Shown: piece by piece, positions 17,862 to 59,811 of the stretch
Position numbering within the stretch: position 1 is the stretch's first letter
Layout of the letters: each line of letters starts with the position of its first letter
Assembly: GCA_035652395.1 (NCBI GenBank)
Contig: DASRDX010000013.1
Span: 3,255-67,254 of the forward strand
DNA from: Minisyncoccota bacterium
Lineage (GTDB): Bacteria > Patescibacteriota > Minisyncoccia > Phycocordibacterales > CAJBRS01
Reading direction: 5' to 3'
Length of the DNA: 64,000 bases
Program-made: the position numbers and the translations under genes
Notes under the pieces: model-generated
What the model was told of the DNA's origin: nothing
Databases searched by the model: none
What the model saw: only the letters and a program-made list of their open reading frames with translations

Positions 17862-17898
17862 TTTCGGAAAGGGCCTAAAAATCAGTACTAAAGTACTA

Positions 17899-17927: not shown

Positions 17928-17994
17928 TGTTTCACCACGCAGGGAAGCGGAAAAACATTGAAAGAGCCGAACAGGCTGGAAAGGAAGTTAAAAA

Positions 17995-27992: not shown

Positions 27993-28702
27993 TATTGTGT
28001 TCATTGGATTTTGAGACGACTGGAACGGAGCCTTTGAGAGACGAACCAACGGAATTTGGAGGCGTATTATATAGTACTAAACAACATAGGTGTTTAGATA
28101 GTTTAGGCGTACTACTTAAAACAGAGGTGCCGATTTCATCAGAGATTACGGAGAAGACGGGAATCACAAAACAGGCATTGAATAGGTTCGGATACGTTCC
28201 AAGTGAGATTCTTCCAACAATAGTAGAAATGATAGAATCGGCAGACGCGGTTATTGGATATAACTGCCGAAGATTCGACCAAAAAGTTCTTATTGAATGG
28301 GCAAAACGAGAAAATGTAGAAATCCCAAACAAACCTTGGATTGATTTGTATTATGATTTACCGTATAATGTACCCGTGGGTAAGCTTAGTCACGTCATGG
28401 CCGACCACGGTTTTCTTAATTATTTTCCTCACAGCGCGTTATCCGATGCTATGGGGGTACTTTTGATAGCAAGTAAGTACGATTCTAATTTATTGCTGCA
28501 ACGGTCGCAATCACCAACGGTAATTATTAGGAGTTTAGTGGATAGAAGTCAAAACGACCTAGTAAAACAGGCAAAATTCAGGTGGAATCCATCATTTAAG
28601 ATTTGGTGGAAGGCCGTTAAGGAACAGGATATAGAAGAGTTTACAAAATCTTTGCCATTCAAAACAGAATTGAGCAATTTGACACAGGAGGAACTAGAAT
28701 AG
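27989..28702 (+). CDS. DnaQ-like 3'-5' exonuclease (DEDDh)
   Basis: Exo I LDFETTG, Exo II GYNCRRFD, Exo III HSALSDAMG. Confidence 0.8.
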   Translation: MILCSLDFETTGTEPLRDEPTEFGGVLYSTKQHRCLDSLGVLLKTEVPISSEITEKTGITKQALNRFGYVPSEILPTIVEMIESADAVIGYNCRRFDQKVLIEWAKRENVEIPNKPWIDLYYDLPYNVPVGKLSHVMADHGFLNYFPHSALSDAMGVLLIASKYDSNLLLQRSQSPTVIIRSLVDRSQNDLVKQAKFRWNPSFKIWWKAVKEQDIEEFTKSLPFKTELSNLTQEELE

Positions 28703-29265
28703 TGACAAATAGTGGTGGTGATGTATTGGCTCGCGGAGGTATTTCGGCGCAATTCCGCGCATCGGAATCTACCGTTAGTCAAGAAAAATGGAATGAGGCT
28801 TTCGGAGACCAACTTTCTGCTTTTGAAGAAAGACTTAGGCAGAAGGCCATTGCCGAAGGCTTGACGGAAGAACAATTTAGAGAAATGAAACAGCAGGTTG
28901 ACCAACGTTTGCAGCAAGAAATAGAAGAGAAAAAACGTGAATCAAAAGAAGTGCAATTGAAGAATTTGAAGATTCGACCGATACAAGATAGGATTATCGT
29001 GTGTCGGGAGGAAATTCAAGAAAAAAGCGGCGATGTTTATCTGCCCGATGAGGCGAAAGAAAAGCCAGCCGAAGGAATCGTAATTGCGGTAGGACCCGGA
29101 CGATTTCTTGCAAATGGGGAGTTTGTCCCCACCAGCGTAAAAGTTGGAGAACGAGTCCTGTTCGGAAAATATTCAGGAGCGGAAGTAAGAGTTGGATTGG
29201 TTGATTTAACCGTCCTGAGAGAAGAAGATATATTTTTTGTAAAGGAGAAAGAAAACAATGAGTGA
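28702..29265 (+). CDS. GroES-like co-chaperonin fused to an N-terminal extension
   Basis: C-terminal 95 aa (IRPIQDRIIV...SGDVYLPDEAKEKPAEGIVIAVGPGRFLANGEFVP..VKVGERVLFGKYSGAEV) aligns with Cpn10. Confidence 0.75.
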   Translation: MTNSGGDVLARGGISAQFRASESTVSQEKWNEAFGDQLSAFEERLRQKAIAEGLTEEQFREMKQQVDQRLQQEIEEKKRESKEVQLKNLKIRPIQDRIIVCREEIQEKSGDVYLPDEAKEKPAEGIVIAVGPGRFLANGEFVPTSVKVGERVLFGKYSGAEVRVGLVDLTVLREEDIFFVKEKENNE

Positions 29266-36200: not shown

Positions 36201-36801
36201 AGCAAAATATTTGGAAATTTATGCGAAATCAGGAAAGATGGTAGCACCTTATGTCAAAAAATGGGAGCTAAGTCAGCCTGTAAAAACTAGAGCAATAGCG
36301 CCGAACGGGACGATAGGAATCATAGCTGAAACTACTACAGGCATCGAACCTATATTTTGTGCCGCCTATAAGCGACGATATTTGAAAGGGGATGTTTGGC
36401 ACTTTCAATATGTCGTTGACCCGACAGCCAAGAGGCTCTTAGATTCAGGAGTGCCGTTGGAATTGATTGAAGATGCTTACGACTTGGCTAAAGATGTCGA
36501 AAGAAGAGTGGCATTTCAAGCATGGGTTCAAGAGTATGTGGACCATAGTATCAGTAGTACAATTAATCTTCCAAAATGGGGTTCTGAACTAAACAATGAA
36601 AATAAAGTCAGGAATTTTGGTGACATGCTAATAAAATATCTTCCGAAATTAAGAGGAATAACAGTGTATCCCGACGGCTCAAGACCGGGACAACCGTTAA
36701 ATCCTGTTCCTTTGGCTGTTGCTTTGTCTCAAGAAGGACATGTATTCGAGGAATCTGGCAGTACAGTTTGCGACATAACAAAAGGAGGAGAATGCGGATG
36801 A
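33292..36801 (+). CDS. ribonucleotide reductase catalytic subunit (class II-like) interrupted by two inteins
   Basis: extein blocks GGGIGVDYS, catalytic Cys (NAPIC|...|TEI) and CNLGSINMA; 1169 aa is about 549 aa after intein removal. Confidence 0.75.
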   Translation: MTVEMSKFASDIMKQKYSHLNKEGEVENWQNIAYRVSKKVLQAVRAPHSQIEATRKIIENRKFIPGGRYLASTGRLFHQVNNCGAGETRVVTKEGVKTLKELSGTKPTLMTTNGTWVEADVKSFGKQPLLRVRIRRDKYEKDLYMTPEHSWRIAKYYSNGRCAHKVEVLTKDLKPGDMLWQVFGYGAKRTPISIDGIRHGIVFGSSGSEVVLCGKKNLEILKFFKGYKLKKHESGVKVSGLPKTYKDLPSLQNDRSYLLGWLCGYFAADGCVSKDGKIELASTNLKNLERVREICYVIGIGTKNIRKQVRISNLTKKTSVIYYLPFIPSTLSKKFFLISKHRENFKIKKTPIWSVVSVNKTNRFEEVFCAIVPETHEFVLEDNILTGNCFLFRAEDSREGWADLMHKITLALMTGGGIGVDYSDVREEGRIIRKTGGKSTGPLALMQMVNEAGRFIMQGGSRRSAIWAGLNWKHPDIQKFIRMKDWSEVVKLEKTKNFNFPAVLDMTNISVLLDDEFFEAYHNEKHEQHVLATSVYWSAIRHMLETGEPGFSIDVGKNSRETLRNAPICGDVWVLTSEGYKEVKAIINKPVTIWTGKRWALNVVFQKTKSDAPIVKVKMTGGRYIRCDESHEFLTGSEGFFRVPAKDLKPGDVLYTALNYPEQKTKFHLDSYILGYMYGDGTFNKNGTAEITFCTEKSIKCAKPMSRSSIFSSMNRNSKGYLRAYFKKSDFWSGRNKSTFPKDVYAYDQHKALSFVAGLFDSDGNYESKQNRIRLASKHESFLRGVARLLEQFGIFAGVTKAGISTFGKSQGYQLVVMSEYNDMFSKLIPTIRVRPRKQKQSNRHSVIKVVSVESDGVEDVYCADVRVDEHSFQAEGVIISNCTEITSSDDSDVCNLGSINMARIESLEEMERVVELGSAFLLAGTVYSDVPFAAIDKVRSKNRRLGLGLMGLHEWLLKKGKKYGPDEELAKYLEIYAKSGKMVAPYVKKWELSQPVKTRAIAPNGTIGIIAETTTGIEPIFCAAYKRRYLKGDVWHFQYVVDPTAKRLLDSGVPLELIEDAYDLAKDVERRVAFQAWVQEYVDHSISSTINLPKWGSELNNENKVRNFGDMLIKYLPKLRGITVYPDGSRPGQPLNPVPLAVALSQEGHVFEESGSTVCDITKGGECG
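33538..34455 (+). mobile_element. intein 1 (306 aa) with LAGLIDADG-type block
   Basis: begins with Cys after FHQVNN, ends ...ILTGN followed by Cys; internal LLGWLCGYFAADGCV. Confidence 0.6.
34996..35937 (+). mobile_element. intein 2 (314 aa) with two LAGLIDADG motifs, inserted at the catalytic cysteine
   Basis: begins with Cys after NAPI, ends ...VIISN followed by CTEI; motifs ILGYMYGDGTF and VAGLFDSDGNY. Confidence 0.65.
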
Positions 36802-44694: not shown

Positions 44695-45530
44695 ATGGAT
44701 ATAATTATATATCATAATAACTGTCCAGACGGTTTTTCTGCCGCTTACGTGGCGAAAATGAAATATCCCGAAGCGGAATTATTACCATTAGACTACGGTA
44801 CGGAGCCTCCGTATAATCGAGTCTCTGGAAGAGATGTTTTAGTTGTGGATTTTTCTTGGAGAAAAAGAGAACAAAATAGAAAATTAGCCGAATTGTCGAA
44901 AAGCTTTCTTATTCTTGACCACCATAAAACCGCACAGGCGGAACTCGAAAATGAACCGTATGCTGTTTTTGACATGAATAAGAGCGGAGTCGGAATTACT
45001 TGGGATTATTTTTTAATGGGCCGCGCCCTTGGTGGGTGAATTATGTCGAAGACAGAGATTTGTGGAGATGGAAACTTCCGTATTCACGATATGTAAATGC
45101 TTTTATTATGACATTTCCGCGCTCGTTGGAAGCTTGGGACCGTCTTGTAAAATACGACGAGGAACAAGCAATTTTTATAGGAAGATACATAACTTTACAA
45201 ATAGAACATTATGTTAATGATGTAGCAAAACAATCTAAGCGAGGAAAAATTAAGGTCGGAGAAAACGAACTAGATTTGATGATTCTGAATGTCCCTTATA
45301 TAAATTGCAGTGAAGTAGGAGAAAAATTAACTGAAGAGACGGGATTAAGTTTGACTTGGTTTGAACGGGCCGACAATAAAATTCAATTTTCATTGAGAAG
45401 CAGGGGAGATTTAGACGTTAGCGAAATTGCAAGACAGTTTGGTGGCGGCGGGCATAAAAATGCCGCTGGATTCGTACTACCGATTTCGGAAGGCCGCGCT
45501 GTAATTGATGGAATTAGTTATGGCCGTTGA
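44695..45530 (+). pseudogene. DHH-family phosphoesterase (NrnA/RecJ-like) split by a frameshift near a T6 run
   Basis: DHH motif LILDHHKT in the first frame (44695-45039), DHHA1 GGGHKNAAG in the second frame (45000-45530); frames overlap at TTTTTT 45009-45014. Confidence 0.6.
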
Positions 45531-46206
45531 ACACATGTTGATAGCCGTTAAAAGCTGTCAACAGCATCAATCGTACCATCAAGCTATCAGGGATACTTGG
45601 GGCAAACAAGTATCCCGAATGGTATTTTTTATGGGTGGTTTAACGGGGGTGGTTCCCTCTTCCGATGAGGTTCTGCTTGATTGTCCTGACGATTATCTTA
45701 GTTTGCCGCTCAAGACAAAGAAAATTTTAGAATGGGCGGGAGATAGATTTGAATATATTTATCTCTGTGATAACGACACTTTTATAATACCAACACGATT
45801 AATGTCCTTGGATTATGATAGGTATGACTATTCGGGTTCAATGGATAGACACTGCCCCATAGGGCAGACAAAAGATTATAGAGACCATATAGGATATTAT
45901 CCAAATTGCCATCCTTGGGCTAGTGGTGGAGTCGGATATTTTTTGTCTAAAAAAGCAGCGCAATTTATAGCGAAGAAAACTCCCGATGTTTGGGCGGAAG
46001 ATTTATGGGTAGGCCAAGTTCTAGGTCCTGAGATACAATCGGGAAGAATGACGGCGGCTCATCTTCCCAAATTAGAAAATTATTCCGCTTGGCATTTTAA
46101 GAGAACGCGGAAATACAGATTTTATTGTCCTGAAATGATGTACCGAAGTTTTCGCTTGGGGAATCCAGATTTAATGTATAAGGAAGATAATGACAATAGT
46201 AACTAG
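45505..46206 (+). CDS. GT-A fold glycosyltransferase (Fringe/beta-1,3-galactosyltransferase-like)
   Basis: DxD-like LCDNDTFI, hydrophobic core, 233 aa. Confidence 0.45.
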   Translation: MMELVMAVEHMLIAVKSCQQHQSYHQAIRDTWGKQVSRMVFFMGGLTGVVPSSDEVLLDCPDDYLSLPLKTKKILEWAGDRFEYIYLCDNDTFIIPTRLMSLDYDRYDYSGSMDRHCPIGQTKDYRDHIGYYPNCHPWASGGVGYFLSKKAAQFIAKKTPDVWAEDLWVGQVLGPEIQSGRMTAAHLPKLENYSAWHFKRTRKYRFYCPEMMYRSFRLGNPDLMYKEDNDNSN

Positions 46207-47038
46207 ACTGCGGGGCGGCATTGGAAATCAAATGTTCCAATATGCTATGGGATTGGCCCAAGCAAAAAGGTGGCAGACTGATTTATTGTTGGATATTTCA
46301 TCATTTGTGGGAGATTCTTTAAGGCGTTTCAATCTTAATTTGTTTCCACGAGTGAATGAAAAAACGGTAATAGGATACGTGAAGGCCACAATTTCCGAAT
46401 CGGGCATGCCGTATAATAAAGCCATAGTTGATTCCATAAAGTGCGACGAAATTTTAAGCGGATATTGGCAAACCGAAAAGTATTTTTCTTGGGATGCGCT
46501 CGGTTCGTCCGTTCCTTTTGGGGACATAAAGCAAGATTTGTTTTCAATTTTTACTGATGTTTCTATACAAGGAGATTATTATCACAGGCTAAACCGAATA
46601 AAAAGCGTTGAAAACAGCATCGCAGTTTGCATACGCCGCACGGATTATTTGAAATCTGATTTTCACGGCGTCTTACCCGCCGAATACTACAGGACAGCAG
46701 CCAAATTTATAAATGCCGAAAATCCTACGTTTTTCGTGTTCTCTGACGAACCGAAATGGTGCGAACAAAATTTTACGAATATTATTCCCGATGTTCCGTT
46801 TGAAATCATGGGTAGCTTTGACCAAACAACGCCGGAACATTTAGGCACTGAACATTTAGACATTAATTTAATGTCTTGGTGTAGGCATCACATTATAGCT
46901 AATTCTACATTTGCTTGGTGGGGCGCATGGCTCGGAGAAATCAGACAAAAAGGAATTATTTGTGCCCCGTCCCAATGGTTCTTAAATGCGCCAGAAAATC
47001 CAAAAGATATAATTCCTGAAAGGTGGATTAAACTATGA
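46190..47038 (+). CDS. alpha-1,2-fucosyltransferase (GT11, FutC-like)
   Basis: GT11 motifs RLRGGIGNQMFQYA and CIRRTDY, C-terminal IANSTFAWWGAWL. Confidence 0.7.
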   Translation: MTIVTRLRGGIGNQMFQYAMGLAQAKRWQTDLLLDISSFVGDSLRRFNLNLFPRVNEKTVIGYVKATISESGMPYNKAIVDSIKCDEILSGYWQTEKYFSWDALGSSVPFGDIKQDLFSIFTDVSIQGDYYHRLNRIKSVENSIAVCIRRTDYLKSDFHGVLPAEYYRTAAKFINAENPTFFVFSDEPKWCEQNFTNIIPDVPFEIMGSFDQTTPEHLGTEHLDINLMSWCRHHIIANSTFAWWGAWLGEIRQKGIICAPSQWFLNAPENPKDIIPERWIKL

Positions 47039-47586
47039 TTGATTTGAATAATCCTAAATTTGTGTCGTTTTTATCCCCGCAAGCTGAGTGGAAGCACGCT
47101 CTACTTATAGAATTGGGGGAAAGATTCAATCTTCAGATTCTAGTGGAAACTGGAACGTGTTATGGCGGCACAATTAATGCGGTTAAACATTGCTTTTCTG
47201 AGATACACAGTATTGAGATTCAAAAATCCATATATGATAGTGTTGTGAGACGGTTTGCGGAAGACAGACATGTTAAATTGTATCATGGTTCTAGTCGGCG
47301 TATTTTAAGAGGCGTATTATCAAATGTTCCCTCAGGACCTCTGCTATTTTGGCTAGATGCTCATATAACAGGCGGAACAACCGAAAACGACGGAGACCAA
47401 ATAAACGAGGAATTGAAAATCATTACTGAGGAACGGCCCGATTCTTTAATTGTGATAGACGACGTGAAACCTGACCGATGCAATGGATACGAAGGACCCG
47501 ATGCGGCTATTACAATACCTGAAGGTTATAAAGCTGTATTTTTACACGGCGTATTAATTGTGCACGATGGTAGATATAATATCTAA
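47035..47586 (+). CDS. class I SAM-dependent methyltransferase (sugar O-methyltransferase-like)
   Basis: motif I LVETGTCYGG, acidic motif II, LFWLDAH. Confidence 0.45.
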   Translation: MIDLNNPKFVSFLSPQAEWKHALLIELGERFNLQILVETGTCYGGTINAVKHCFSEIHSIEIQKSIYDSVVRRFAEDRHVKLYHGSSRRILRGVLSNVPSGPLLFWLDAHITGGTTENDGDQINEELKIITEERPDSLIVIDDVKPDRCNGYEGPDAAITIPEGYKAVFLHGVLIVHDGRYNI

Positions 47587-47603
47587 TACCGGAGAAATTC
47601 TAA

Positions 47604-49235
47604 ATGAAAATTTTAGTGACGGGAAGCGGCGGATTAATTGGAGGCGAAGCAGTAGAATATTTTGGTTCTCGCGGCCACGAAATCGTAGGTGTGGACAATA
47701 ACATGCGAAAGAAGTTTTTCGGAGATTCGGCGGATATTTTATGGAATTTGCATCGCGTGGTTCATAAAGTTATCAGATATGCACATCACGAAGCCGATAT
47801 TCAGGATATGAATGCGCTGCAAAATTATGTTTTTCAAGGCGCACCATACGACGCGGTTATTCATTGCGCCGCTCAGCCTTCGCATGATTATGCCGAAAAG
47901 AATCCTGAAATAGATTACGGCGTCAACGTTCAGGGCACCAAGAATTTATTGGAATGTACGTTAAAGCATAGTCCGAACGCTGTCTTTATATTTATGAGCA
48001 CCAATAAAGTTTACGATAATGCCGTTAACAGTATGGAATTTGAAGAATTTCAAACTCGTTTTGATAAAAGAGCGTGGCGAGGATTCGATGAGACGACTTC
48101 AATCGGAGCCAATAATACATTTGGACGGCATAAACTCGAAGCAGATTTAACGGTTCAAATTTATGCGGCGAAAGGCTTAAAAACCGTAGTTCTTAGAGGC
48201 GGTTGTTTGACGGGTCCGGGGCATTCGGGTGTTGAAATGCACGGCTTTCTTTCGCACTTAATTAAAACAGCCGCTACAGACGGCGTGTATAAAATTTTTG
48301 GTTATGAAGGAAAGCAAGTTCGAGATAATATCCATTCCTATGACGTTATGCGAGCCGTGGAAGAGATAATCAAAAATCCTATAGCAGGAGAAATTTATAA
48401 TATTGGCGGAGGCAGAGGAAACAGCATATCAATACTTGAGGCCATTGCCAAGGTGGAAGGCATCATAGGAAAACCCGTAAAACGAGAATATGTAAATGTT
48501 CCTCGTTCGGGAGACCACAAATGCTACATTACGGATTTTTCCAAATTAAAAAAACATTATCCGAATTGGGGCATAACAAAGAATTTAGATTATATATTCG
48601 ATGACATATTAAGGCAGATTTATTGGGGGCAGTATTCCGACCACGAAGATACGAAAAACTATCCTCTTAATGAAAACAGTGTCGTGATAGATGTTGGTGG
48701 ATATAGAGGAGCGTTTACGGACGATATTGTAAAAAGATATAATTGTTTTGTTCACGTAATAGAACCAATAGAGGATTTTTATCATGCATGCGTTTTTAGA
48801 TTCAAAAACAATCCTAAAGTGACGCTGCATAATATAGGATTGTCGCATAAAAATGGAAATAGAACCATTGCTAGCCAAGGTCAAAACAGCAGCTTGTTTC
48901 GCGGCGGACAAAATCAACCGGAGCTTCCGCCGGACCCTGTTTACGGAAAACCCGTTCCGATAATTGCTAATGTTGTAGATGCAGCCGAATTTTTTGAACG
49001 AAACATAATTGAAGCCGATTTGATAAGTCTTAACGCAGAAGGCGCGGAGTTTGAGATATTGCCTCGTCTCATAGAAACGGGATACATTCAAAAGTGCCGA
49101 AATGTTCAAATTCAATTTCACAAATTTTACCCTAATGCCGAGATTCTTAGAGAAGCAATTAGAACAGAGCTTAGAAAAACCCATGTCGAGAGTTTCAATT
49201 ATCCTTGGGTGTGGGAGTCGTGGAAATTAAAATGA
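47604..49235 (+). CDS. NAD-dependent sugar epimerase/dehydratase fused to FkbM-family methyltransferase
   Basis: N-terminal Rossmann MKILVTGSGGLIGGEAVEYF and YxxxK-type core; C-terminal about 190 aa VVIDVGGYRGAFTDDI...FkbM-like. Confidence 0.65.
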   Translation: MKILVTGSGGLIGGEAVEYFGSRGHEIVGVDNNMRKKFFGDSADILWNLHRVVHKVIRYAHHEADIQDMNALQNYVFQGAPYDAVIHCAAQPSHDYAEKNPEIDYGVNVQGTKNLLECTLKHSPNAVFIFMSTNKVYDNAVNSMEFEEFQTRFDKRAWRGFDETTSIGANNTFGRHKLEADLTVQIYAAKGLKTVVLRGGCLTGPGHSGVEMHGFLSHLIKTAATDGVYKIFGYEGKQVRDNIHSYDVMRAVEEIIKNPIAGEIYNIGGGRGNSISILEAIAKVEGIIGKPVKREYVNVPRSGDHKCYITDFSKLKKHYPNWGITKNLDYIFDDILRQIYWGQYSDHEDTKNYPLNENSVVIDVGGYRGAFTDDIVKRYNCFVHVIEPIEDFYHACVFRFKNNPKVTLHNIGLSHKNGNRTIASQGQNSSLFRGGQNQPELPPDPVYGKPVPIIANVVDAAEFFERNIIEADLISLNAEGAEFEILPRLIETGYIQKCRNVQIQFHKFYPNAEILREAIRTELRKTHVESFNYPWVWESWKLK

Positions 49236-49975
49236 ATCTTTCTAATATAACTATAGGCATAACATCATTTCTTCGTCACGGATATTTGCGACAATCTTTG
49301 CATGGTATCAGAATAAATTTCTCTGATTGCAGGTGGCTTGTGGCGGACGATTCAGACGTTCCGCCGCCTTTGTCTAGTGAAGAAATGGTACGTTTAAGCT
49401 TCGATTCGGGCTTAGGCGCAAAAAGAAACGCTCTAATTGAAAATACCAAGACTGAATATTTACTTCTAGCGAGCGACGATTTTGTTTTCGATGAAGAATC
49501 TAGAATGGGCGTTGAGTTACTCAAAATGACTTTAGACCGAAATCCCGAAGTGAGCGTAGCGGCAGGCAGAGTAAATGATAGACCGTATGAGGGGTTTCTT
49601 GAGTATTCTAGAGGAACTTACCTAAAAGAGATTTTGTTTGATGGCGATAAAAATCCGCTTTACAATACCGACCCCAACTGCTATAAGGTAGATATTGCAG
49701 CTAACTATTTTTTGGCGCGAACGCATCGGTTGATTCATTGGCCCGAATCAATTAAAATAGGCGGAGAGCATGGTCTGTGGTTTTTAAGAATGAAGCAGGC
49801 GGGCAGAATAGTTGTTTGGGTTCCCGGAGTGAACATACAAACACAGGAAAATAATCCTAGCAAAAAAGATTCAAGATATGATATGCTTCGTCGTAGATGT
49901 TGGGACGGCCACAATAAAATGAAGCAAATTTTGGAGATAAAGAAATACATAGATTTTTTTGGTATCGAGACATAG
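49232..49975 (+). CDS. glycosyltransferase (GT2-like)
   Basis: ITIGITSF.R...L and LVADDSD (DxD) pattern. Confidence 0.45.
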   Translation: MNLSNITIGITSFLRHGYLRQSLHGIRINFSDCRWLVADDSDVPPPLSSEEMVRLSFDSGLGAKRNALIENTKTEYLLLASDDFVFDEESRMGVELLKMTLDRNPEVSVAAGRVNDRPYEGFLEYSRGTYLKEILFDGDKNPLYNTDPNCYKVDIAANYFLARTHRLIHWPESIKIGGEHGLWFLRMKQAGRIVVWVPGVNIQTQENNPSKKDSRYDMLRRRCWDGHNKMKQILEIKKYIDFFGIET

Positions 49976-49982
49976 AAAAAAA

Positions 49983-50537
49983 ATGAAAACTTGGCTAATT
50001 ACTGATACTCACTTGAACCACAACAATATTAAGACCTATTGTCAGCGACCGGATGACCATACGGAACGTATTGATGCCAACATTCGTCGAATGGTGAGTC
50101 CGAATGATATTTTGATTCATTTGGGCGATATAGGAATAGGCAAAACTGACGTATTTATGCCGACTGTGCAAAAATGGCCGGGCAAGAAGTGGCTCATTCG
50201 CGGGAACCACGACACAAAATCGTGCCAATGGTATGTACAAAATGGATTCGATATGGCTTGCGACGGACTGATTTATCGCGGCGCTTGGCTTACGCATAAA
50301 CCGTGGCGAGCGCCTTTGCCTCGCGGTACTCATATCAATATTCACGGACATTTACACAATGTTTGGGATGGATTTCTTGCCGACGACCCCGAAAAACAAA
50401 AAGATGAGTTTTTTATTTCGGCCAAAAAAGGAAAACTTTTATATCCTTGGCAAAGATTGCTTGCCGTGGAGTACACCAATTATATGCCCGTAGAATTTGA
50501 TAAATTCGTGGCGAAAGGATGGGCGTGGAGAAGATGA
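49983..50537 (+). CDS. calcineurin-like metallophosphoesterase
   Basis: ITDTHLNH, HLGDIGIGK, GNHD, HGHLH motif series. Confidence 0.75.
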   Translation: MKTWLITDTHLNHNNIKTYCQRPDDHTERIDANIRRMVSPNDILIHLGDIGIGKTDVFMPTVQKWPGKKWLIRGNHDTKSCQWYVQNGFDMACDGLIYRGAWLTHKPWRAPLPRGTHINIHGHLHNVWDGFLADDPEKQKDEFFISAKKGKLLYPWQRLLAVEYTNYMPVEFDKFVAKGWAWRR

Positions 50538-51077
50538 ATGGCCGACTTTGAACCTATTGTTAGGTGGGTTCTTTTCCAAGAAGACGATAAAAAAGAACCA
50601 GGTAAAATCGTGGATTTAGGGGACGGGGCAGGATTAACTCGGCTTGGAATTACTCAGCGTTATCATGCTAATGATGTTCCTTCCGAATACTTTACTACAA
50701 TGCCGTTTGCCCAAGCCGTAGCTTACGCCAAATCGGTGTACAAGAAATTTTATTGGGTGCCCATACGAGGAGATGAAATTCAATCCGATATTGTGGCCGC
50801 TCCCGTGTTTAGTTTGGCTGTAAATAATTCTCCATCCGGTGCCGTTCGTGTTTTACAAAAAGTTTTGGACATAAAACAGGATGGAATTTGCGGACCGATT
50901 ACCATTAACACTTGTAACTCCAAACAGCCTGAAATAGTGGCTTCAATGTTTCGAGCGGAGTGGGAGGATTTTTATAGACAGATAGCCGCATATAATAATC
51001 AAAATAAATTTTTATCGGGTTGGCTTGCCAGAGTTTATTTTCCGTATCCGTCGCCCGTGCCCCAAATTTATGATTAA
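50538..51077 (+). CDS. GH108-family lysozyme with peptidoglycan-binding domain (putative endolysin)
   Basis: N-terminal GH108-like region and C-terminal PG_binding_3-like segment (GICGPIT). Confidence 0.5.
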   Translation: MADFEPIVRWVLFQEDDKKEPGKIVDLGDGAGLTRLGITQRYHANDVPSEYFTTMPFAQAVAYAKSVYKKFYWVPIRGDEIQSDIVAAPVFSLAVNNSPSGAVRVLQKVLDIKQDGICGPITINTCNSKQPEIVASMFRAEWEDFYRQIAAYNNQNKFLSGWLARVYFPYPSPVPQIYD

Positions 51078-51348
51078 ATTTTGTTACATGTGTCGCCATA
51101 AAGGTTGCCCCAATCCTTACTTTTGGAGTTATAGCGAAAAAGGTTTGGACATTTTGATTCGCCTGCATGAGGCGGACCATTTTCTTGAAATTCAAGAAAG
51201 CATGAAAAGATATGATGAACAGAACAAATTTAAAAACAAGGATTATAATAAATTATACTGTAATTGGCAGGACATACTTTTTCTGAAGACGAGGGGAATT
51301 TCCATAGACGAGGATATTATTTATGTCGGTAAAGGTAGTGAACATTAA
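51070..51348 (+). CDS. hypothetical Cys-rich protein
   Basis: MIKFCYMCRHKGC... Confidence 0.35.
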   Translation: MIKFCYMCRHKGCPNPYFWSYSEKGLDILIRLHEADHFLEIQESMKRYDEQNKFKNKDYNKLYCNWQDILFLKTRGISIDEDIIYVGKGSEH

Positions 51349-53260: not shown

Positions 53261-54016
53261 ATGGAGACCCTTAATGAGTTGGCACTTTTCGCGGGCGCTG
53301 GTGGAGGAATACTTGGCGGAAAACTCCTGGGATGGAAAACTGTCTGCGCTGTTGAAATCGAACCCTACCCTGCAAGTATTCTTATCAAAAGACAGAATGA
53401 AGGATTTCTCAAATCCTTCCCTATTTGGGACGACGTTAGAAGTTTTGACGGACGACCTTGGAAAGAAATTGTTGACGTGGTTTCTGCGGGCTTCCCGTGT
53501 CAGGATATTAGTGTCGCAGGAAAAGGAGCGGGAATCTCAGGAAAACAAAGCGGCTTGTGGAAAGAAGCAGCCAGAATTGTTGGTGAAGTACGACCTGGAT
53601 TCGCGTTCTTGGAAAACAGTCCCGCGCTTACCAGTCGAGGACTCGACGTTGTTCTTGGGGACTTGGCCGAAATGGGGTACGATGCGGAATGGTGTGTGCT
53701 CGGAGGCTCCGATGTTGGAGCTTGGCATCAAAGAAAACGCATCTGGATTCTCGCTGCCGACAATAGGCAAGAACGAGTTCAAAGGTTCGTCTCGAAAAAG
53801 ATACCGTGGAAGCACAGAGTACCGTGGTGCCAAGATGTCCGAGGGATTGAGGATTTGCGAAAACGAACCGATATATACTCACCCCAACTTTGCAGAGGAA
53901 GCAATGGGGTGGCCGATTACGTGGACAGAATCTCGGCCATTGGAAACGGACAGATTCCAACAGTGGCTGCGAGCGCATTCAGTATTTTAATCAATAGATT
54001 TGTCAGGGAACGGTGA
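53261..54016 (+). CDS. C-5 cytosine DNA methyltransferase
   Basis: motif I FAGAGGG, motif IV GFPCQDIS, motif VI ENSPAL. Confidence 0.8.
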   Translation: METLNELALFAGAGGGILGGKLLGWKTVCAVEIEPYPASILIKRQNEGFLKSFPIWDDVRSFDGRPWKEIVDVVSAGFPCQDISVAGKGAGISGKQSGLWKEAARIVGEVRPGFAFLENSPALTSRGLDVVLGDLAEMGYDAEWCVLGGSDVGAWHQRKRIWILAADNRQERVQRFVSKKIPWKHRVPWCQDVRGIEDLRKRTDIYSPQLCRGSNGVADYVDRISAIGNGQIPTVAASAFSILINRFVRER

Positions 54017-54636: not shown

Positions 54637-55127
54637 AAAACACATTAAAAGTGGGTGACGAAGTTTACGTGACACGAAAGGCCAAAAGCTATGAAAATGG
54701 TTGGAACAATGTTTGGGTTCCGAGCGCGATGAATTGTTACGTAGGTAAGATTGGGCGCGTTAAAGCAATTTATGAAGATATAGGAATCGAGCTAGATTTC
54801 GGAGATGGCATGCCTGAATATTTGTTCCCCTCTTTTGTTTTAAAGAAAATTTCTCCAATTCAGGAAGCCAGAGACATTGCTAAAAAAATATCTAAACGAA
54901 ACGGCTTTGTTACAATTGATGAAGTCCAATCGGCCATGAAAGAGACTAAATTCGGGCCTATAACGAAGGGAGCGGCTGGAGCGGTTTTTAATACGCCCGA
55001 ATTTATAAATACGGGAGTGACGGTCAAGAGCGTCAGACCCGAAAATCGGGGCAGGAGAATTTCTATTTGGAAGCTTAAAACAAGGGATAGGCATGGAAAA
55101 AAGACAGCTTTACGTAGTGGTGGCTAA
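54633..55127 (+). CDS. hypothetical protein
   Basis: start at MKNTLKV (RBS GGAAAAC). Confidence 0.4.
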   Translation: MKNTLKVGDEVYVTRKAKSYENGWNNVWVPSAMNCYVGKIGRVKAIYEDIGIELDFGDGMPEYLFPSFVLKKISPIQEARDIAKKISKRNGFVTIDEVQSAMKETKFGPITKGAAGAVFNTPEFINTGVTVKSVRPENRGRRISIWKLKTRDRHGKKTALRSGG

Positions 55128-55452
55128 TTCAATAGAAACGGATTTCGGGAAGATAAAGCAACCCAAAGGACGGCAAACGGCTCAGGCCGCGCATGCCGCT
55201 GCGGCTTTTTGTTTTGAATATGGTAAATTATTAAATGCTTATACTACAACAATAATAATTTTACAAGCAAGAGATTCGGCAGAATTGCAGCATATTATGC
55301 GTTTAGCCAAAACAAAAAAGCTGCGTCACGTCGCATTTTATGACGAAAATTTATCCGCCTACGGCGACGGACAGTTTTTAACTGCCGTGGCCATATGCGG
55401 ATTGCCAAAACAGGTTCAGGGTGTCATCGATTATTTGCCGCTTTGGAGTTAA
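55093..55452 (+). CDS. PTH2-family peptidyl-tRNA hydrolase-like protein
   Basis: LYVVVANSIETDFGKIKQPKGRQTAQAAHAAAA parallels the PTH2 VVR.DL.MGKGKIAAQCAHAA motif. Confidence 0.55.
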   Translation: MEKRQLYVVVANSIETDFGKIKQPKGRQTAQAAHAAAAFCFEYGKLLNAYTTTIIILQARDSAELQHIMRLAKTKKLRHVAFYDENLSAYGDGQFLTAVAICGLPKQVQGVIDYLPLWS

Positions 55453-55454
55453 AG

Positions 55455-56423
55455 GTGAGATTAATACAAGACACAAAATTGGATTTTCAAGATGTGCTTC
55501 TAGTTCCGAAACGCTCTACAATTCAGAGTCGGAAAGAAATAAATCTGTTGCGAACCTTTAAATTTCGCTACGTTGATTGGACGTGGACAGGAGTGCCAAT
55601 CATTTCGTCCAATATGACTTCGGTCACGACTATTGAAGTTGCGCGGGTTATGTCGGAGCGCGGCATGTTAGCCTGTATGCCGAAGAATTTTAACGGCTCA
55701 TCTTCGATTAATTCGGATTTTCTAATCAAAAGTATAGGTCTCAATTCCTTTGTTTCTAATATTAATTACGATTGTTGTTTTTTATGTTTGGATGTACCGA
55801 ACGGCTACATAGAATCGGTTGTGGATAAAGTTCGTGAAATCAGGTCTGAATTTAGAGATGTTGTAATCATGGCTGGAAATGTCGTCACTCCAGAAATGAC
55901 CGAAGCCTTAATTCTAGCGGGAGCCGACATCGTGAAAGTAGGAATAGGAAGCGGAGCAGCTTGTTCGACCCGTATTAAAACTGGCGTCGGGTACCCACAA
56001 TTAAGCGCAGTAATTGAATGTGCCGATGCGGCCCACGGTCTCGGCGGCCACATCATCTCGGACGGCGGATGTGGTACACCAGGAGATGTCGTGAAAGCTT
56101 TTGCCGCTGGAGCGGATTTTGTTATGCTTGGCGCAATGCTGGCCAGTCACGATGAAAACGGCACCGAATTTTACGGTATGGCATCAGAAAAAGGCGCTAC
56201 CGAGATAGCTGGTGGCCTTAAAAACTACAGGGCTTCGGAAGGATGGGAATTTAATTTACCTCGGCGCGGTCCGCTAGAAAACACTCTTCAAGAAATTACA
56301 GGCGGCATTCGGTCGGCCTGTGCCTATGTCGGGGCTAAAAACATAAAAGACTTGCCTAAATGCGCGACATTTGTTAGGGTAAATAGGATAGCCAACAGCA
56401 GTTTGTGGGAACACCGAATTTAA
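55455..56423 (+). CDS. guaC: GMP reductase (IMPDH/GMPR family)
   Basis: GTG start after GGAG; N-terminus RLIQDTKLDFQDVLLVPKRST and the GSGAACSTR / GGCGTPGDVVKA core. Confidence 0.75.
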   Translation: MRLIQDTKLDFQDVLLVPKRSTIQSRKEINLLRTFKFRYVDWTWTGVPIISSNMTSVTTIEVARVMSERGMLACMPKNFNGSSSINSDFLIKSIGLNSFVSNINYDCCFLCLDVPNGYIESVVDKVREIRSEFRDVVIMAGNVVTPEMTEALILAGADIVKVGIGSGAACSTRIKTGVGYPQLSAVIECADAAHGLGGHIISDGGCGTPGDVVKAFAAGADFVMLGAMLASHDENGTEFYGMASEKGATEIAGGLKNYRASEGWEFNLPRRGPLENTLQEITGGIRSACAYVGAKNIKDLPKCATFVRVNRIANSSLWEHRI

Positions 56424-57405: not shown

Positions 57406-58383
57406 ATGATAACAAAAGTAAAGAACAAGACAACTCCTTCATTCAGGGAACAGGCCGAAGTGTGGCTACGAAATGGACAAAAGCGTAAAAGAAATCCGCT
57501 TCGTCCCGAAACAGTCAAGACCTATAAATCGCAAATTGAAACCAATTTGAATCCGAATATAGGCGTACTTGCCGTAGATTCCGTTGGAAATAAAGAAGTT
57601 AAAGAACTTGTGGCAATCTTGGCCGCCAAAGGACTATCGGCCAGCACGATTCAGCTTAACGTCAATATTATCAAGCAGATACGAAGTTCTATCGTTAATT
57701 CAGAGGGTGAGCAAGTCTATCCGTATAAATGGAACACGGAATTTATGGACTTGCCCATTGTAGATAAGAATCAACAGAAAAGGCCCGTGGCTAGCGCACA
57801 GACGGTTCAAGACGCATTTAAATGCACTTCCAAGGCCCCAAGCCATACCCAAGCCCTTTTGGTCGTTCTAGCGGGTTCTGGGCTGCGAATTCAAGAGGCT
57901 TTGGCATTGACTATGGCCACGAATGAGGAAAGACTGCCTAATTTTAATTATTGGGTGCCGTCCGAATCAAAAATAGTCGTATTCGGACAACGAGATGGCC
58001 AAAGAATGATGCCGCCGAAAACGAAGGCAGGAATTAGAGAAGTAGACTTGCCTAGCGAGCTTAATGACTATCTAAAGCGGCATTTTAGGATTGAAAACGG
58101 ATTAATGTTTCCTGAATCCGAAAGCTTTTACCGACGTGAATTTGCAAAATGCGGCATTTTAGGCGGATTCCACAGTCTACGGCGATTCAGGGTTACACAT
58201 TTGCGTATGCAGGGGGTTCCCGACAGTCTAGTTCATTTTTGGATTGGACATGAAGATTCTACCGTAACAGGCAGGTACACCGAAGTCGGAACAGAAATCG
58301 AAGCAAGAAGAGAAGCGGCCAATAAAGCAGGTTTAGGTTTTAATTTGGATGAACCGATACGCGGGCGCAATCCCGGACTTTAG
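57406..58383 (+). CDS. int: tyrosine site-specific integrase
   Basis: catalytic box HSLRRFRVTHL...HFWIGHEDSTVTGRYTEV (R..H.R.Y); N-terminal SAM-like domain. Confidence 0.85.
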   Translation: MITKVKNKTTPSFREQAEVWLRNGQKRKRNPLRPETVKTYKSQIETNLNPNIGVLAVDSVGNKEVKELVAILAAKGLSASTIQLNVNIIKQIRSSIVNSEGEQVYPYKWNTEFMDLPIVDKNQQKRPVASAQTVQDAFKCTSKAPSHTQALLVVLAGSGLRIQEALALTMATNEERLPNFNYWVPSESKIVVFGQRDGQRMMPPKTKAGIREVDLPSELNDYLKRHFRIENGLMFPESESFYRREFAKCGILGGFHSLRRFRVTHLRMQGVPDSLVHFWIGHEDSTVTGRYTEVGTEIEARREAANKAGLGFNLDEPIRGRNPGL

Positions 58384-58389
58384 TCTGGG

Positions 58390-58860
58390 TTAGCCGCGTC
58401 CTTGTTGACTGACATACGTTTTGAGAATTTCTAACGTCGCTCCACCTACGGAGCAAAGGAAGAAACCGCTAGACCAAAGAGTACGAGCATGACGACCCCA
58501 ATAGAAGGAACCAAATCGGCTGAGATAGGCGGAAGCACTCTTACTTTTGAGAGTGCCAACAACTGCGCTCAAGTTAGCCGTGGGAGGGTAGCGGAGAAGA
58601 AAGTGGATGTGGTCGGCATCGCCACCAAACTCAACAACCGCACAGCCGATGCTATCAACAACGCCAGTAAGCATCTCACGAATAAACGGAAGGTCGGCAA
58701 GAAGCTTCCTGCGGAACTTCGTGCAAAAGACGACGCGCACACAAAGATGGTAGACACAGTGACTTGCTGTATCAAAATCAAGTGCCCCGATTTTCTTCGT
58801 CCCGTACTTGATTCCTTGGTACCCAAGGCTCGTGCCTGCGTTGATAGAATGCTCGCTCAT
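58390..58860 (-). CDS. tnpA: IS200-like transposase TnpA (HuH, Y1)
   Basis: HuH motif DHIHFLL, conserved CVYHLCVRVVFCTKFRRK block; start trimmed to the MSEHS Met. Confidence 0.7.
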   Translation of the reverse strand: MSEHSINAGTSLGYQGIKYGTKKIGALDFDTASHCVYHLCVRVVFCTKFRRKLLADLPFIREMLTGVVDSIGCAVVEFGGDADHIHFLLRYPPTANLSAVVGTLKSKSASAYLSRFGSFYWGRHARTLWSSGFFLCSVGGATLEILKTYVSQQGRG

Positions 58861-59811
58861 CGCGACCAGTCCTCTAGTAAATATTATCACGAGATACCGA
58901 GCGCAATCAGCAAGAGTCTGATTGCGAAGTACCAAAGAAATAAGAAATGCAAATCGGTAACCAACCTCGTGTTGCCTATCTCCGGAGACAAAGGCAGGCA
59001 GATTAAGTTGGAAGCAGGCGGGTTGAGAATCCCTGCACTATTCAAAAAAGAAATTCTGCCCGTTATATGGTTGCGACTGCCTGTAGGATTCATCCGTAGT
59101 GCAGAATTTTTTATGCGCAAAGGCGGGTGGTACGCAGCAGTTTGCTACAACGCAAAAGCGGATAAGCAGTTCGTGTGCACGGGAACAGTGGGCGTTGACC
59201 GTAACTCGGTTGGTGCTGTCGCAACGTTGGCAGACCCACAAAGCGGGAAAGTTTTGCATCTTGGTTTCAACCCAGCAAAGACAAAAGAAGTCTGGAGGGG
59301 GCGGAAAGCAAATTTGCAGGGTCTTGGGAAGAAGCGTCTTCTTCACGAGATTCGTAATAAGCAATCAAGACGCACGAAGTACGAAAATCATGTCGTGTCC
59401 AAGCAGATTGTGGACTACGCCGCGAAACATCGTCGGTGCATTAACGTAGAGAAATTGGAGAACGTCAGGAAGGGGAAGATTCGCCGTTATAGCGAGTCGT
59501 CTCAGTGGTCTTTCTATCAGTTGCTTCAATTCATTCTCTACAAAGCCGCTTTGCGCGGGGTAATGGTGCTGGAAGTAGATTCTGCGTATACATCGCAGGA
59601 GTGCTCCCGATGCCATCAGTTAACCAAGCCCAACGGTAAGTCATATCGTTGTGGACATTGCGGACACAATGACCACCGAGACGCTAACGCGGCATTTAAC
59701 GTCGCAGGACGCGCGATGCCTATCGGTGGAGTAGTCGGAGACTCAGTGCGCTCCGATTCGGGCCTATTGGTAGTCCCGTTTCTGGGAACCGAGGTGCAGC
59801 AATGCAACTAG
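58852..59811 (+). CDS. tnpB: TnpB (OrfB) RuvC-like protein with zinc finger
   Basis: RuvC-I GVDRNSV, C-terminal CSRCH...CGHCGH zinc finger; start uncertain (58489, 58744 or 58852). Confidence 0.65.
   Translation, partial: LAHRDQSSSKYYHEIPSAISKSLIAKYQRNKKCKSVTNLVLPISGDKGRQIKLEAGGLRIPALFKKEILPVIWLRLPVGFIRSAEFFMRKGGWYAAVCYNAKADKQFVCTGTVGVDRNSVGAVATLADPQSGKVLHLGFNPAKTKEVWRGRKANLQGLGKKRLLHEIRNKQSRRTKYENHVVSKQIVDYAAKHRRCINVEKLENVRKGKIRRYSESSQWSFYQLLQFILYKAALRGVMVLEVDSAYTSQECSRCHQLTKPNGKSYRCGHCGHNDHRDANAAFNVAGRAMPIGGVVGDSVRSDSGLLVVPFLGTEVQQCN

Follow-up and report, generated by a model that had tools for sequence, protein, structure and literature searches.

The window (the whole 64,000-nucleotide stretch analysed, from contig DASRDX010000013.1 of a Minisyncoccota bacterium assembly) belongs to a large uncultured phage and carries a gene cassette that quite probably directs, during the lytic cycle, the synthesis of a methylated glycan with a fucose-type cap. 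More tentatively, we favour a fuller interpretation in which genes g1–g5 form a portable viral glycan cassette, expressed within a lytic operon, whose acceptor is a virion protein. The observed basis is provided by enzyme families and folds, synteny, domain fusions, operon structure and the lack of membrane or export components.

Organisation of the gene cluster

Six tightly packed genes occupy positions 45505–50537, all on the + strand, as the initial annotation had reported, in an arrangement far beyond chance. That annotation had assigned all six to glycan synthesis; five are indeed glycan-enzyme genes (g1–g5), whereas the sixth, a metallophosphoesterase gene (g6), has no ortholog in related cassettes, and the cluster therefore comprises five glycan genes plus a phosphoesterase.

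45520..46206 (ORF 45505–46206), + strand: g1, GT31-like GT-A glycosyltransferase (Pfam PF01762)
46190..47038, + strand: g2, GT11 glycosyltransferase (Pfam PF01531, phrog_2644)
47035..47586, + strand: g3, class-I SAM-dependent O-methyltransferase-like protein, 183 aa (AF2 fold, Foldseek, profile)
47604..48623, + strand: g4 N-terminal SDR domain, aa 1 to about 340 (PDB matches)
48657..49235, + strand: g4 C-terminal FkbM domain, aa about 352–543 (PF05050, TIGR01444)
49232..49975 (ORF 49205–49975), + strand: g5, accessory GT-A glycosyltransferase, GT2/GT12-like (ortholog profile)
49983..50537 (ORF 49959–50537), + strand: g6, metallophosphoesterase (PF00149, phrog_547)

The upstream DHH gene overlaps g1 by 11 nt, ATGA overlaps join g2 to g3 and g4 to g5, and the endolysin gene (GH108 + PG_binding_3) follows g6 with a spacing of 0 nt. 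In a scan of the region, promoter-like and terminator-like sites were no more frequent than expected. Sequence prediction finds no transmembrane or signal segments in the cassette proteins, none of the genes encodes a membrane, flippase or export protein, and all of the g1–g5 enzymes are predicted to be soluble and cytoplasmic.

The cassette lies among replication genes, with about 45 kb separating it from the terminase/portal module, and the neighbours named previously (ThyX, MazG, dNMP kinase, YfbR-like HD hydrolase, DUF4326 and an integrase) are all present. The identical phage has been recovered from different samples, as more than 22 contigs.

g6 matches PF00149 (E = 4.9e-8) and phrog_547 (E = 8.8e-29), with a likely start at 49983. 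Neither g6 nor the DHH gene has an ortholog in any related cassette locus; comparison of these loci indicates that g6 is an adjacent, co-transcribed neighbour rather than part of the conserved glycan module, and that the DHH gene likewise lies outside it.

The cassette enzymes

Searches of Pfam, PHROG and NCBIfam, together with profile and Foldseek comparisons, bear out the earlier enzyme assignments at the level of family or fold, and the families found uphold the earlier proposal of a methylated, fucosylated glycan.

g1 had been described as a Fringe-like GT-A enzyme. The GT-A assignment stands, with a match above cutoff to Galactosyl_T/GT31 (PF01762, E = 2.5e-8), whereas the Fringe model falls below its cutoff (E = 1.5e-3). 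An ortholog profile matches C1GalT1 (7q4i, 1.2e-7), B3GalT5 and B3GNT2, and the DxD motif (D89, D91) is invariant among orthologs, which were present in all five of the divergent loci first examined. We predict that g1 is a small soluble GT31-family enzyme resembling β-1,3-Gal/GlcNAc-transferases. Its ORF opens at TTG 45505, but the ATG at 45520, chosen by gene callers, is likely to be the true start.

The GT11 assignment of g2 is secure at the family level (PF01531, E = 2.8e-17; phrog_2644, E = 1.5e-41). Its sequence contains GGIGNQMFQYA, CIRRTDY and NSTFAWWGAWL, which we take to be GT11 signature motifs, and orthologs with 41–45% identity occur in all related cassettes; the protein is predicted to be an α-1,2-fucosyltransferase-like enzyme.

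g3 has no match in Pfam, PHROG or NCBIfam and belongs to a family without Pfam coverage. Its modelled fold (AF2, pLDDT 93) is nevertheless that of a class-I SAM methyltransferase, as originally suggested, and resembles the cation-dependent O-methyltransferase family 3: the best Foldseek matches are TrmR/YrrM (5zw3), PaMTH1, the CCoAOMT-like 3ntv and an Anaplasma OMT (E about 1e-6, TM 0.6–0.65), and a profile search against the PDB finds class-I methyltransferases at 6e-5. Invariant residues include ETGT (38–41), E61, LDAH (107–110) and DD (142–143).

Both domains of the epimerase–FkbM fusion proposed for g4 (47604–49235) are present. The protein matches Pfam Epimerase with E = 1.6e-35, and its FkbM domain exceeds the cutoffs of both PF05050 (30.6 bits against 22.7) and TIGR01444 (41.7 bits against 37.7). 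The N-terminal domain is an extended SDR closest to CDP-tyvelose 2-epimerase, TyvE (PDB 9rl0/1orr, E about 1e-29; GalE/RmlB about 1e-14), with which it shares the catalytic lysine, K177, the TNK segment (T133-N134-K135) and the NAD-binding GxxGxxG motif. TyvE can also interconvert GDP-Glc and GDP-Man, feeding GDP-fucose synthesis. The g4 subfamily differs from TyvE in its fused methyltransferase, in having Pro-Ser-His (P92-S93-H94) in place of the VAM segment, and in having Phe (F173), invariant in 26 members of the family, in place of Tyr164. Because this catalytic tyrosine is replaced, epimerase activity, which the earlier description implied, is only putative.

g5, previously called GT2-like, falls below the GT2 cutoff as a single sequence (E = 6e-3), but its ortholog profile reaches human B4GALNT1 (9h6j, E = 1.9e-12) and PglI (9jma, E = 4e-4). 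The ORF opens at TTG 49205, and the ATG at 49232 selected by gene callers is likely to be the true start. Among related loci, orthologs are found only in L001, L002, L005, L011 and L013; g5 is an accessory gene, outside the conserved module.

Conservation and domain fusions in related loci

Only g1–g4, on the evidence of sequence comparison, constitute the conserved, portable module. At least eight divergent viral contigs keep the order g1-g2-g3-g4, with 36–64% amino-acid identity (L001, L002, L003/L012, L005, L006 and L013 among the loci), and g1-g2-g3 linkage extends to L011, L014, L017/18, L024 and L025. The carriers are unrelated, non-T4-like phages; contigs with the fusion bear phage hallmarks such as tail genes, terminase and HNH/T5orf172. 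The L001 and L002 cassettes come immediately after the tail-fibre region of the late operon and are enlarged to 7–15 GT/MTase genes; an initiating phosphoglycosyl transferase, a flippase, a polymerase and a transporter are all absent from them. In L013 the cassette lies among replication genes and in L006/L018 near the terminase, so that adjacency to structural genes is no rule.

FkbM-type domains homologous to that of g4 are found in the fusions FkbM-GT25-GT11-GT2 (L029), g3-FkbM (L044) and, in Rhizobium (L067), GT10-FkbM. Other fusions are g3-GT2 and GT31-GT6 (both L014) and MTase-GT2-g3 (L023). Such Rosetta-stone fusions suggest that the methyltransferases and glycosyltransferases act in one glycan-level pathway. 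Since GT6 enzymes act on Fuc-α1,2-Gal, the GT31-GT6 fusion fits an H-antigen-like product of GT31 and GT11.

Proposed pathway

The cassette product is likely to be an O-methylated Fuc-α1,2-Gal-type cap; its linkages, the identity of its sugars and its acceptor are the parts of the mechanism that we infer. A GT-A enzyme (g5 or g1) would place or lengthen a hexose or HexNAc on the acceptor, the GT31-like g1 would attach a β-1,3-linked Gal- or GlcNAc-type residue, and the GT11 enzyme g2 would cap this with an α-1,2-linked L-fucose-type 6-deoxyhexose from a GDP-sugar donor. Two positions of the cap would then be O-methylated by g3 and the g4 FkbM domain, which are distinct SAM methyltransferases, while the Tyr-less TyvE-like SDR may provide or tailor the nucleotide-sugar donor; no GDP-fucose synthesis genes are present. 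The acceptor would most likely be a phage-made protein, namely a capsid, tail or fibre subunit of the virion, by analogy with the cytoplasmic, virus-encoded glycosylation of chloroviruses and mycobacteriophages.

Comparison with known systems

Gene sets of this kind had been considered foreign to phage cores. Clusters of GT11, GT10, GT2, GT25 and nucleotide-sugar epimerase genes, likewise without export machinery, are however documented as "LPS / cell-wall modification" clusters in the T4-like cyanomyoviruses P-SSM2, S-SCSM1, S-SCSM2R and S-T4 and in huge uncultured phages, and phage glycan-gene clusters are thus an already known kind of locus. These carriers hold the only cultured-phage homologues of g2 (30–33% identity) and g3, and the SDR and GT11 homologues of the 635-kb phage LR745206.1 lie side by side. 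As here, the target of these clusters is only putative. Neither a fusion of SDR with FkbM nor a fixed g1-g2-g3-g4 order has been described for cyanophages, and the small GT31-like g1 further distinguishes this cassette, having no tblastn match among 50,697 phage records.

Chloroviruses use soluble cytoplasmic glycosyltransferases and sugar O-methyltransferases of their own to make fucose-containing, methylated glycans. The PBCV-1 protein A064R combines two glycosyltransferase domains and a methyltransferase domain as part of the capsid glycosylation machinery, and the multidomain proteins of L029, L014, L023 and L044 resemble it in design. Genes resembling g3 are also found in giant-virus MAG contigs. 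The hosts of the cassette phages, unlike those of chloroviruses, are bacterial.

Virion glycosylation by phage-encoded enzymes is established in mycobacteriophages: in Che8, Corndog and Myrna, soluble phage glycosyltransferases reportedly modify capsid and tail-tube subunits in the cytoplasm (Freeman et al. 2023). The position of the L001 and L002 cassettes after tail genes is compatible with such a role, and virion glycosylation is a plausible target option here. Against it stand the distance of the present cassette from the terminase/portal genes and, for the fucose-type cap, the lack of GDP-fucose synthesis genes and of the SDR's catalytic tyrosine. The type of host differs, as the endolysin indicates. 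Because g1 has no match among the 50,697 phage records and g5 a single weak one, neither shows detectable homology to the validated enzymes, nor to any mycobacteriophage protein.

Alternative targets

Glycosylation of modified bases in phage DNA, blocking restriction, was an earlier option and suits the location among replication and nucleotide-metabolism genes (ThyX, MazG, HD hydrolase, dNMP kinase); multi-sugar glycans placed on DNA by phage glycosyltransferases have been reported (Pyle et al. 2024). We consider it the most improbable target, since the window has no dCMP/dUMP hydroxymethylase, and no T4-type α/β-glucosyltransferase or other base-modification gene is found there either. ThyX implies ordinary dTMP synthesis, and a DNA methyltransferase (53261–54016) is the visible anti-restriction device. 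GT31, GT11 and GT6 enzymes use sugar acceptors, the bacterial homologues lie in polysaccharide loci, and small siphophage-like contigs carry this cassette after their tail genes. Serotype conversion, in which a prophage-expressed moron alters the O-antigen of the lysogen, was previously preferred as fitting the integrase. This is a tyrosine integrase (57406–58383) on the same strand about 7 kb downstream, and related enzymes do occur in O-antigen loci. Such conversion is very unlikely, because the cassette overlaps the lytic genes on either side and includes no membrane, flippase or export proteins: translational coupling to replication, phosphoesterase and endolysin genes leaves no space for a promoter or terminator of its own, and proteins of Gtr, Oac or Wzy type are missing. 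A search of 185,579 representative bacterial genomes gave 25 FkbM-type matches, none of them fused to an SDR, so that the phage-type cassette was not seen in integrated prophages there. The phage moreover encodes a 32-tRNA array together with its own PolA, RNR and helicases. By PolA, the cultured phages closest to it are virulent siphophages, and the integrase, which adjoins a TnpB element, may have no part in lysogeny.

The main rival to a virion-protein acceptor, to which we give a lower but appreciable probability, is lytic-phase remodelling of a host envelope glycan by soluble enzymes at the cytoplasmic face. The substrate would be an undecaprenyl-linked O-polysaccharide or another polymer of an ABC-transporter-dependent pathway, and the methyl-fucose cap would alter the chain or end it early. 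In such pathways non-reducing-end methylation ends chains, as is established for WbdD-type systems, and Rhizobium etli CE3 has a tri-O-methyl-fucose cap. Because soluble glycosyltransferases and terminal methylation are normal in these loci, the missing membrane proteins still allow a host-glycan acceptor. The resemblance to O-antigen loci noted initially is real: in Rhizobium sp. F40D2, which has the nearest non-viral homologues, a GT10-FkbM fusion and its GT11 and GT2 neighbours are flanked by Wzm/Wzt on one side and the O-antigen ligase on the other, as a capping module with soluble cytoplasmic assembly, and 11 of the 25 bacterial FkbM-type loci have GT11, sometimes also g3-like, neighbours. 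Bacterial loci, however, carry Wzm/Wzt, ligase and GT4 genes, whereas the phage cassette has none for export or ligation, and in them the FkbM domain, either attached to GT10 or free-standing, is never joined to an SDR. Cell-surface modification is also the standard putative reading of similar cyanophage clusters, and phage cassettes without an initiating transferase fit a host-made primer. Against this, the core is 36–64% identical across phages with presumably different hosts and O-antigens, which a phage-supplied acceptor explains more easily; cassettes of up to about 15 GT/MTase genes resemble de novo synthesis rather than editing; and a surface change made within a lytic cycle would have limited time to act. 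If a host glycan were nevertheless the target, the benefit to the phage could be superinfection exclusion, or progeny kept from adsorbing to debris.

Gene and domain assignments

Six co-oriented open reading frames, here g1 to g6, occupy positions 45505–50537 of the forward strand, as the initial annotation had it. The first, g1, had been called a Fringe-like GT-A glycosyltransferase. It matches the Pfam family PF01762 (Galactosyl_T, GT31) at 34.4 bits against a cutoff of 23 (E = 2.5e-8) and carries an invariant GT-A DxD motif (D89-x-D91), whereas the Fringe model itself reaches 18.4 bits, under its cutoff of 21. A profile of its orthologs matches C1GalT1, B3GalT5 and B3GNT2; family GT31 takes in Fringe, C1GalT1 and the B3GalT/B3GNT enzymes. 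The GT-A assignment is therefore retained, within GT31 and not as Fringe in particular.

The product of g2 belongs to the GT11 family (PF01531, 63.4 bits against a cutoff of 23.9, E = 2.8e-17). GT11 enzymes are recognised by an N-terminal GNQMFQYA, by H-x-R-R-x-D and by STF-x-WW, and the translation of g2 contains GGIGNQMFQYA, CIRRTDY, with Cys replacing the usual His, and NSTFAWWGAWL. Its identification as a putative α-1,2-fucosyltransferase is thus upheld, with fucosyl transfer predicted from sequence. No genes for GDP-fucose synthesis were found in the window.

The small protein encoded by g3 has no match in Pfam, NCBIfam or PHROGs. Nearly all of its 142 homologues are labelled hypothetical, and PF13578 is found on one of 120 among those listed. 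Profile–profile comparison with Methyltransf_24 paralogues (hhalign) gave a probability of 1.6%, which is not significant, and the fold was therefore taken from structure prediction. The AF2 model (pLDDT 93) is matched by Foldseek to TrmR/YrrM, CCoAOMT-like enzymes and PaMTH1 with probability 1.0 and TM 0.6–0.65, and a motif I of the form E-T-G-T-C-x-G and residue E61 are invariant. The predicted fold is that of a class-I SAM methyltransferase resembling the cation-dependent O-methyltransferase family 3, so that the earlier description as a class I methyltransferase is right at the level of fold, without a sequence match to any curated family.

The fusion of an epimerase-like domain to an FkbM methyltransferase in g4 is confirmed in its architecture: an extended SDR domain is followed by a C-terminal FkbM domain that passes both curated cutoffs (PF05050, 30.6 against 22.7; TIGR01444, 41.7 against 37.7). 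An antisense reading frame of 191 residues (48609–49184, reverse strand) lies wholly within g4 and is most likely spurious, since the sense frame is strongly homologous to other proteins. The g5 product is a GT-A enzyme whose ortholog profile matches B4GALNT1 (1.9e-12) and PglI, and g6 encodes a metallophosphoesterase. None of the six proteins has a transmembrane or signal-like segment, the maximum 19-residue Kyte-Doolittle hydropathy being ≤1.3.

The SDR domain of g4

The SDR domain is closest to CDP-tyvelose 2-epimerase (TyvE), with E of about 1e-29 compared with 1e-14 for GalE/RmlB. In TaTyvE the catalytic triad is Thr124/Tyr164/Lys168, and the TNK and VAM segments that position the substrate are conserved (PMC13098431). 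In g4 the Thr (T133) and Lys (K177) are kept, but the Tyr position is occupied by F173, leaving the triad incomplete, and this Phe is invariant in 26 sequences, standalone bacterial homologues included. The TNK segment is also kept (T133-N134-K135), with P92-S93-H94 where TyvE has VAM. The name NAD-epimerase given to this domain describes its nearest relative, TyvE; with the catalytic Tyr missing, any epimerase activity is putative.

Members of this SDR subfamily, bacterial and viral alike, are labelled 'CDP-paratose 2-epimerase' by JGI. Throughout the subfamily an invariant Phe replaces the catalytic Tyr, and Pro-Ser-His replaces VAM. Judged by these residues the label is probably wrong, or at the least unproven. 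An invariant Tyr-to-Phe change in a subfamily so widely annotated by automatic means calls the annotation into question and may point to new sugar-nucleotide chemistry.

A second set of proteins joins the same SDR to a class-I methyltransferase instead of FkbM, one of them in a same-order cassette on another contig (L081), and the genes for the SDR and GT11 homologues of the 635-kb phage LR745206.1 are direct neighbours. These methyltransferase fusions and the adjoining GT11 tie the SDR functionally to the fucosylation and methylation steps. The gene context of P0052, a standalone bacterial homologue, gave no clue to the substrate. TyvE enzymes can convert GDP-Glc to GDP-Man for GDP-fucose synthesis (PMC12188384); by analogy, such a role for the g4 SDR would be a lead only.

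A portable four-gene core

Full-length homologues of g4 number about 35 proteins, at 48–64% identity, from metagenomic contigs; those contigs that were examined share the gene order of the window and show hallmarks of phages. The surroundings of the cassette in these loci are as follows.

L001 and L002: directly 3′ of tape-measure, DUF2460, BR0599, NlpC and host-specificity tail genes
L003, L004 and L012: amid small HNH and T5orf172 genes
L006: 5 kb away from terminase
L013: flanked by helicase/clamp and DNA ligase genes

Ortholog mapping places g1, g2, g3 and g4 in all of these loci and g5 in some, and scanning IMG/VR with a g3 profile recovered 44 loci, many with g1, g2 and g3 linked. In some loci the cassette has grown to 7–15 glycosyltransferase and methyltransferase genes. 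We conclude that the unit is a portable core of four genes, g1 to g4, accompanied by variable accessory transferases. Both g6 and the DHH phosphoesterase gene upstream of g1 are absent from all the related loci by the same mapping, and we have ruled them out as members of the pathway acting in sugar-phosphate or nucleotide handling, as neither is conserved with the cassette.

The genome position of the cassette is variable. Since its neighbours are tail genes in one locus, replication genes or terminase in another, adjacency to structural genes was rejected as a fixed rule for virion glycosylation.

A protein of about 330 residues with no Pfam match is a frequent accessory in these cassettes, at 45–73% identity between loci, and is absent from the window. 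Its genes lie at:

L002, 11644–12648
L005, 4276–5271
L006, 8472–9443
L013, 8979–9992

Glycan clusters with GT11, GT10, GT2 and epimerase genes have already been documented in cyanomyoviruses, where they have been read as putative cell-surface modification. The new element here is that a conserved, portable core has been delimited, with three distinctive components: the GT31-like g1, apparently absent from all cultured phages as judged by tblastn of 50,697 phage records; an O-methyltransferase family (g3) without Pfam coverage; and a fusion, restricted to phages, that joins a Tyr-less, TyvE-like SDR to FkbM.

The phage and its genome

The window covers part of the genome of a large uncultured phage. 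Sequence comparisons show cultured phages to be distant relatives only: the identity of its PolA to those of virulent Xylella/Xanthomonas siphophages does not exceed 40%, and its TerL match has 29% identity over 22% of the length. Assemblies of Logan, NCBI and ENA samples contain the same phage on more than 22 contigs, with a g4 protein 100% identical and the same gene order. A nucleotide search with 45000–51100 against the 50,697 phage records and a peptide-pattern scan of IMG/VR with the single g4 protein both gave no match, which made profile-based scans necessary.

The cassette lies within one long block of genes:

about 14.6 to 59.8 kb, forward strand: co-oriented replication and late genes with the cassette among them

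On its 5′ side this block encodes helicases, dNMP kinase, exonuclease, primase/helicase, ThyX, RNR, MazG, family-A DNA polymerase, a UvrD-type helicase and a PD-(D/E)XK exonuclease. Downstream of the six genes are a GH108/PG_binding_3 endolysin, DUF4326, a DNA methyltransferase and PTH2, and further on an IMPDH/FMN-type dehydrogenase, a tyrosine integrase and a TnpB-type gene. The virion genes are outside the window. Extension past the left edge reached terminase and an SU10-type portal, on the reverse strand, and no capsid gene; at the right edge, extension by way of a 695-aa reading frame found no such gene on record. In another contig of the same phage (L010) a His_Phos_1 phosphatase gene is followed by the terminase large subunit (15705–18473, 922 aa, with a weak Terminase_6C match only) and then by the SU10-type portal.

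Several other features of the genome deserve record. An array of 32 tRNA genes on the reverse strand (3050–10125) covers most amino acids and includes a call with a four-base anticodon (gtaa, 8336–8427) and a tRNA-Ile(tat) (8711–8799). The DHH/DHHA1 phosphoesterase (44695–45530) consists of two overlapping reading frames, 44695–45039 and 45000–45530, that match adjoining stretches of phrog_4771 (profile positions 18–130 and 131–292); the frame changes at T_TTT_TTA (45010–45016), a classical −1 slippery heptamer, and the split recurs in three independent assemblies (L007–L009), making it a candidate for either a programmed frameshift or a fixed homopolymer indel. The RNR large subunit (33292–36801) is unusually long at 1169 aa; RNR profiles match three separate stretches of it and an endonuclease-like match falls at residues 668–688, which suggests an intein or homing-endonuclease insertion. 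The tyrosine integrase is directly followed by a 440-aa TnpB/Cas12f-like gene (PF07282), and this stretch (57406–59811), of raised GC (0.48–0.49), is possibly an inserted mobile element and not the phage's own lysogeny module. The products encoded in the segments 28702–29265 and 55093–56423 are a protein of 187 aa whose C-terminal domain is of the Cpn10/GroES kind, a peptidyl-tRNA hydrolase of the PTH2 type and a protein resembling IMPDH/FMN dehydrogenases (phrog_9582).

A probable common glycan pathway

Domains of the kinds found in the cassette are joined in single proteins in related loci:

L029, 11687–15967: FkbM-GT25-GT11-GT2 fusion of 1426 aa
L044: g3-like domain fused to FkbM
L014: g3-like domain fused to GT2
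L023: class-I methyltransferase fused to GT2 and a g3-like domain
L014, 13827–15554: GT31-like domain fused to GT6, the blood-group A/B-transferase family

The acceptors of GT6 enzymes are Fuc-α1,2-Gal. The pair of GT31-like and GT11 enzymes would most simply yield an H-antigen-like cap, Fuc-α1,2-Gal-β1,3-R, which the two methyltransferases would then O-methylate.

Bacterial genomes bring similar enzymes together. Searching 185,579 representative genomes with a profile of the FkbM domain gave 25 loci, with a GT11 gene nearby in 11 and a g3-like gene in four. In Rhizobium sp. F40D2 an FkbM-type domain is fused to a GT10 fucosyltransferase; the gene has Wzm/Wzt on one side and an O-antigen ligase on the other, and GT2, GT11 and GT4 genes share the locus. 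Cultured Rhizobium and Chelatococcus strains carry FkbM-type methyltransferase and GT11 homologues, but not the intact phage module.

A related cassette at 1–12000 of the 80-kb contig L081 comprises GT11, proteins of about 330 and 183 aa, an SDR–class-I methyltransferase fusion and a GT31-like gene. It also has a GT29 sialyltransferase-like gene, NeuB and a CMP-sugar synthetase, implying a sialic-acid-type sugar in its glycan.

The acceptor of the glycan

Glycosylation of virion proteins is the reading we favour, tentatively and at somewhat short of an even chance. It is favoured by the portability of the core across phages, by self-contained cassettes that are in some cases very large yet lack initiation and export genes, by the location of the cassette 3′ of tail fibre genes in two lineages, and by a multidomain design of glycosyltransferases and methyltransferases that the cassette relatives and the chloroviruses share. 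Against it, the cassette is distant from the structural genes in this phage, and tblastn of the 50,697 phage records gave no match for g1 and one weak match, in a Salinibacter phage, for g5. By these results g1 and g5 lack homology to the validated mycobacteriophage enzymes, Che8 gp110, Corndog gp38 and the Myrna glycosyltransferase, and to the glycosyltransferases of other cultured phages. Virion glycosylation as such is documented in mycobacteriophages.

The glycan could instead cap or remodel the O-polysaccharide of the host during lytic growth, which we consider rather unlikely, if a serious competitor. The Rhizobium sp. F40D2 locus, in which homologous enzymes serve an ABC-transporter-dependent O-antigen pathway, speaks for it, and because of that locus we have dropped the argument that a cassette without membrane proteins cannot act on a host glycan. 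The bacterial locus has Wzm/Wzt and a ligase; neither the window nor any of the viral loci has them. Serotype conversion in the lysogen, which the initial annotation preferred, is disfavoured and appears very unlikely. Cassette genes overlap or abut lytic genes (overlaps of 11, 17 and 4 nt, with g6 and the endolysin gene separated by 0 nt), and the SDR-FkbM fusion occurs in none of the 25 bacterial loci. Gtr-, Oac- and Wzy-type membrane proteins are also lacking: none of the six proteins has a Pfam domain of an integral-membrane flippase, bactoprenol transferase, acetyltransferase or polymerase (GtrABC, Oac, Wzy/Iap). A scan for promoters and terminators gave counts near the shuffled expectation and was uninformative. 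Glycosylation or other modification of the phage DNA, kept in play earlier by the nucleotide-metabolism genes, gains no positive support and is more improbable still. A scan of the 30 larger window proteins outside the six (small reading frames being covered only in part) revealed ThyX, MazG, an HD hydrolase, dNMP kinase, RNR and a DNA methyltransferase; neither a hydroxymethylase nor a T4-type glycosyltransferase was among them.

Returning to virion glycosylation, its fullest form would be a four-gene module, mobile among unrelated uncultured phages and giant-virus-like contigs, that coats virions with an O-methyl-fucose-capped, histo-blood-group-H-like glycan. Its parts are the GT31-like enzyme, GT11, an unclassified family-3-like O-methyltransferase and the Tyr-less TyvE-like SDR-FkbM, whose SDR has been fused independently to two types of methyltransferase. 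We regard this complete scenario as possible, and doubtful as a whole.

Significance

To our knowledge, glycan genes of phages are common in metagenomes while what they act on is hardly ever known, and virion glycosylation has been demonstrated solely in chloroviruses and a few mycobacteriophages. Being compact, recurrent and sharply bounded, the module offers a tractable experimental unit, with five soluble enzymes and a cap predicted to be methyl-fucose. If it is the O-polysaccharide of the host that is capped, this would be a new route by which a lytic phage edits the host surface. If virions are decorated, the modification would bear on phage stability, adhesion, recognition by immune systems or predators, and phage engineering. 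Should the complete scenario hold, virion glycosylation would reach well past actinophages and chloroviruses, and the Tyr-less SDR would be a previously uncharacterised nucleotide-sugar enzyme, functionally linked to sugar methylation.
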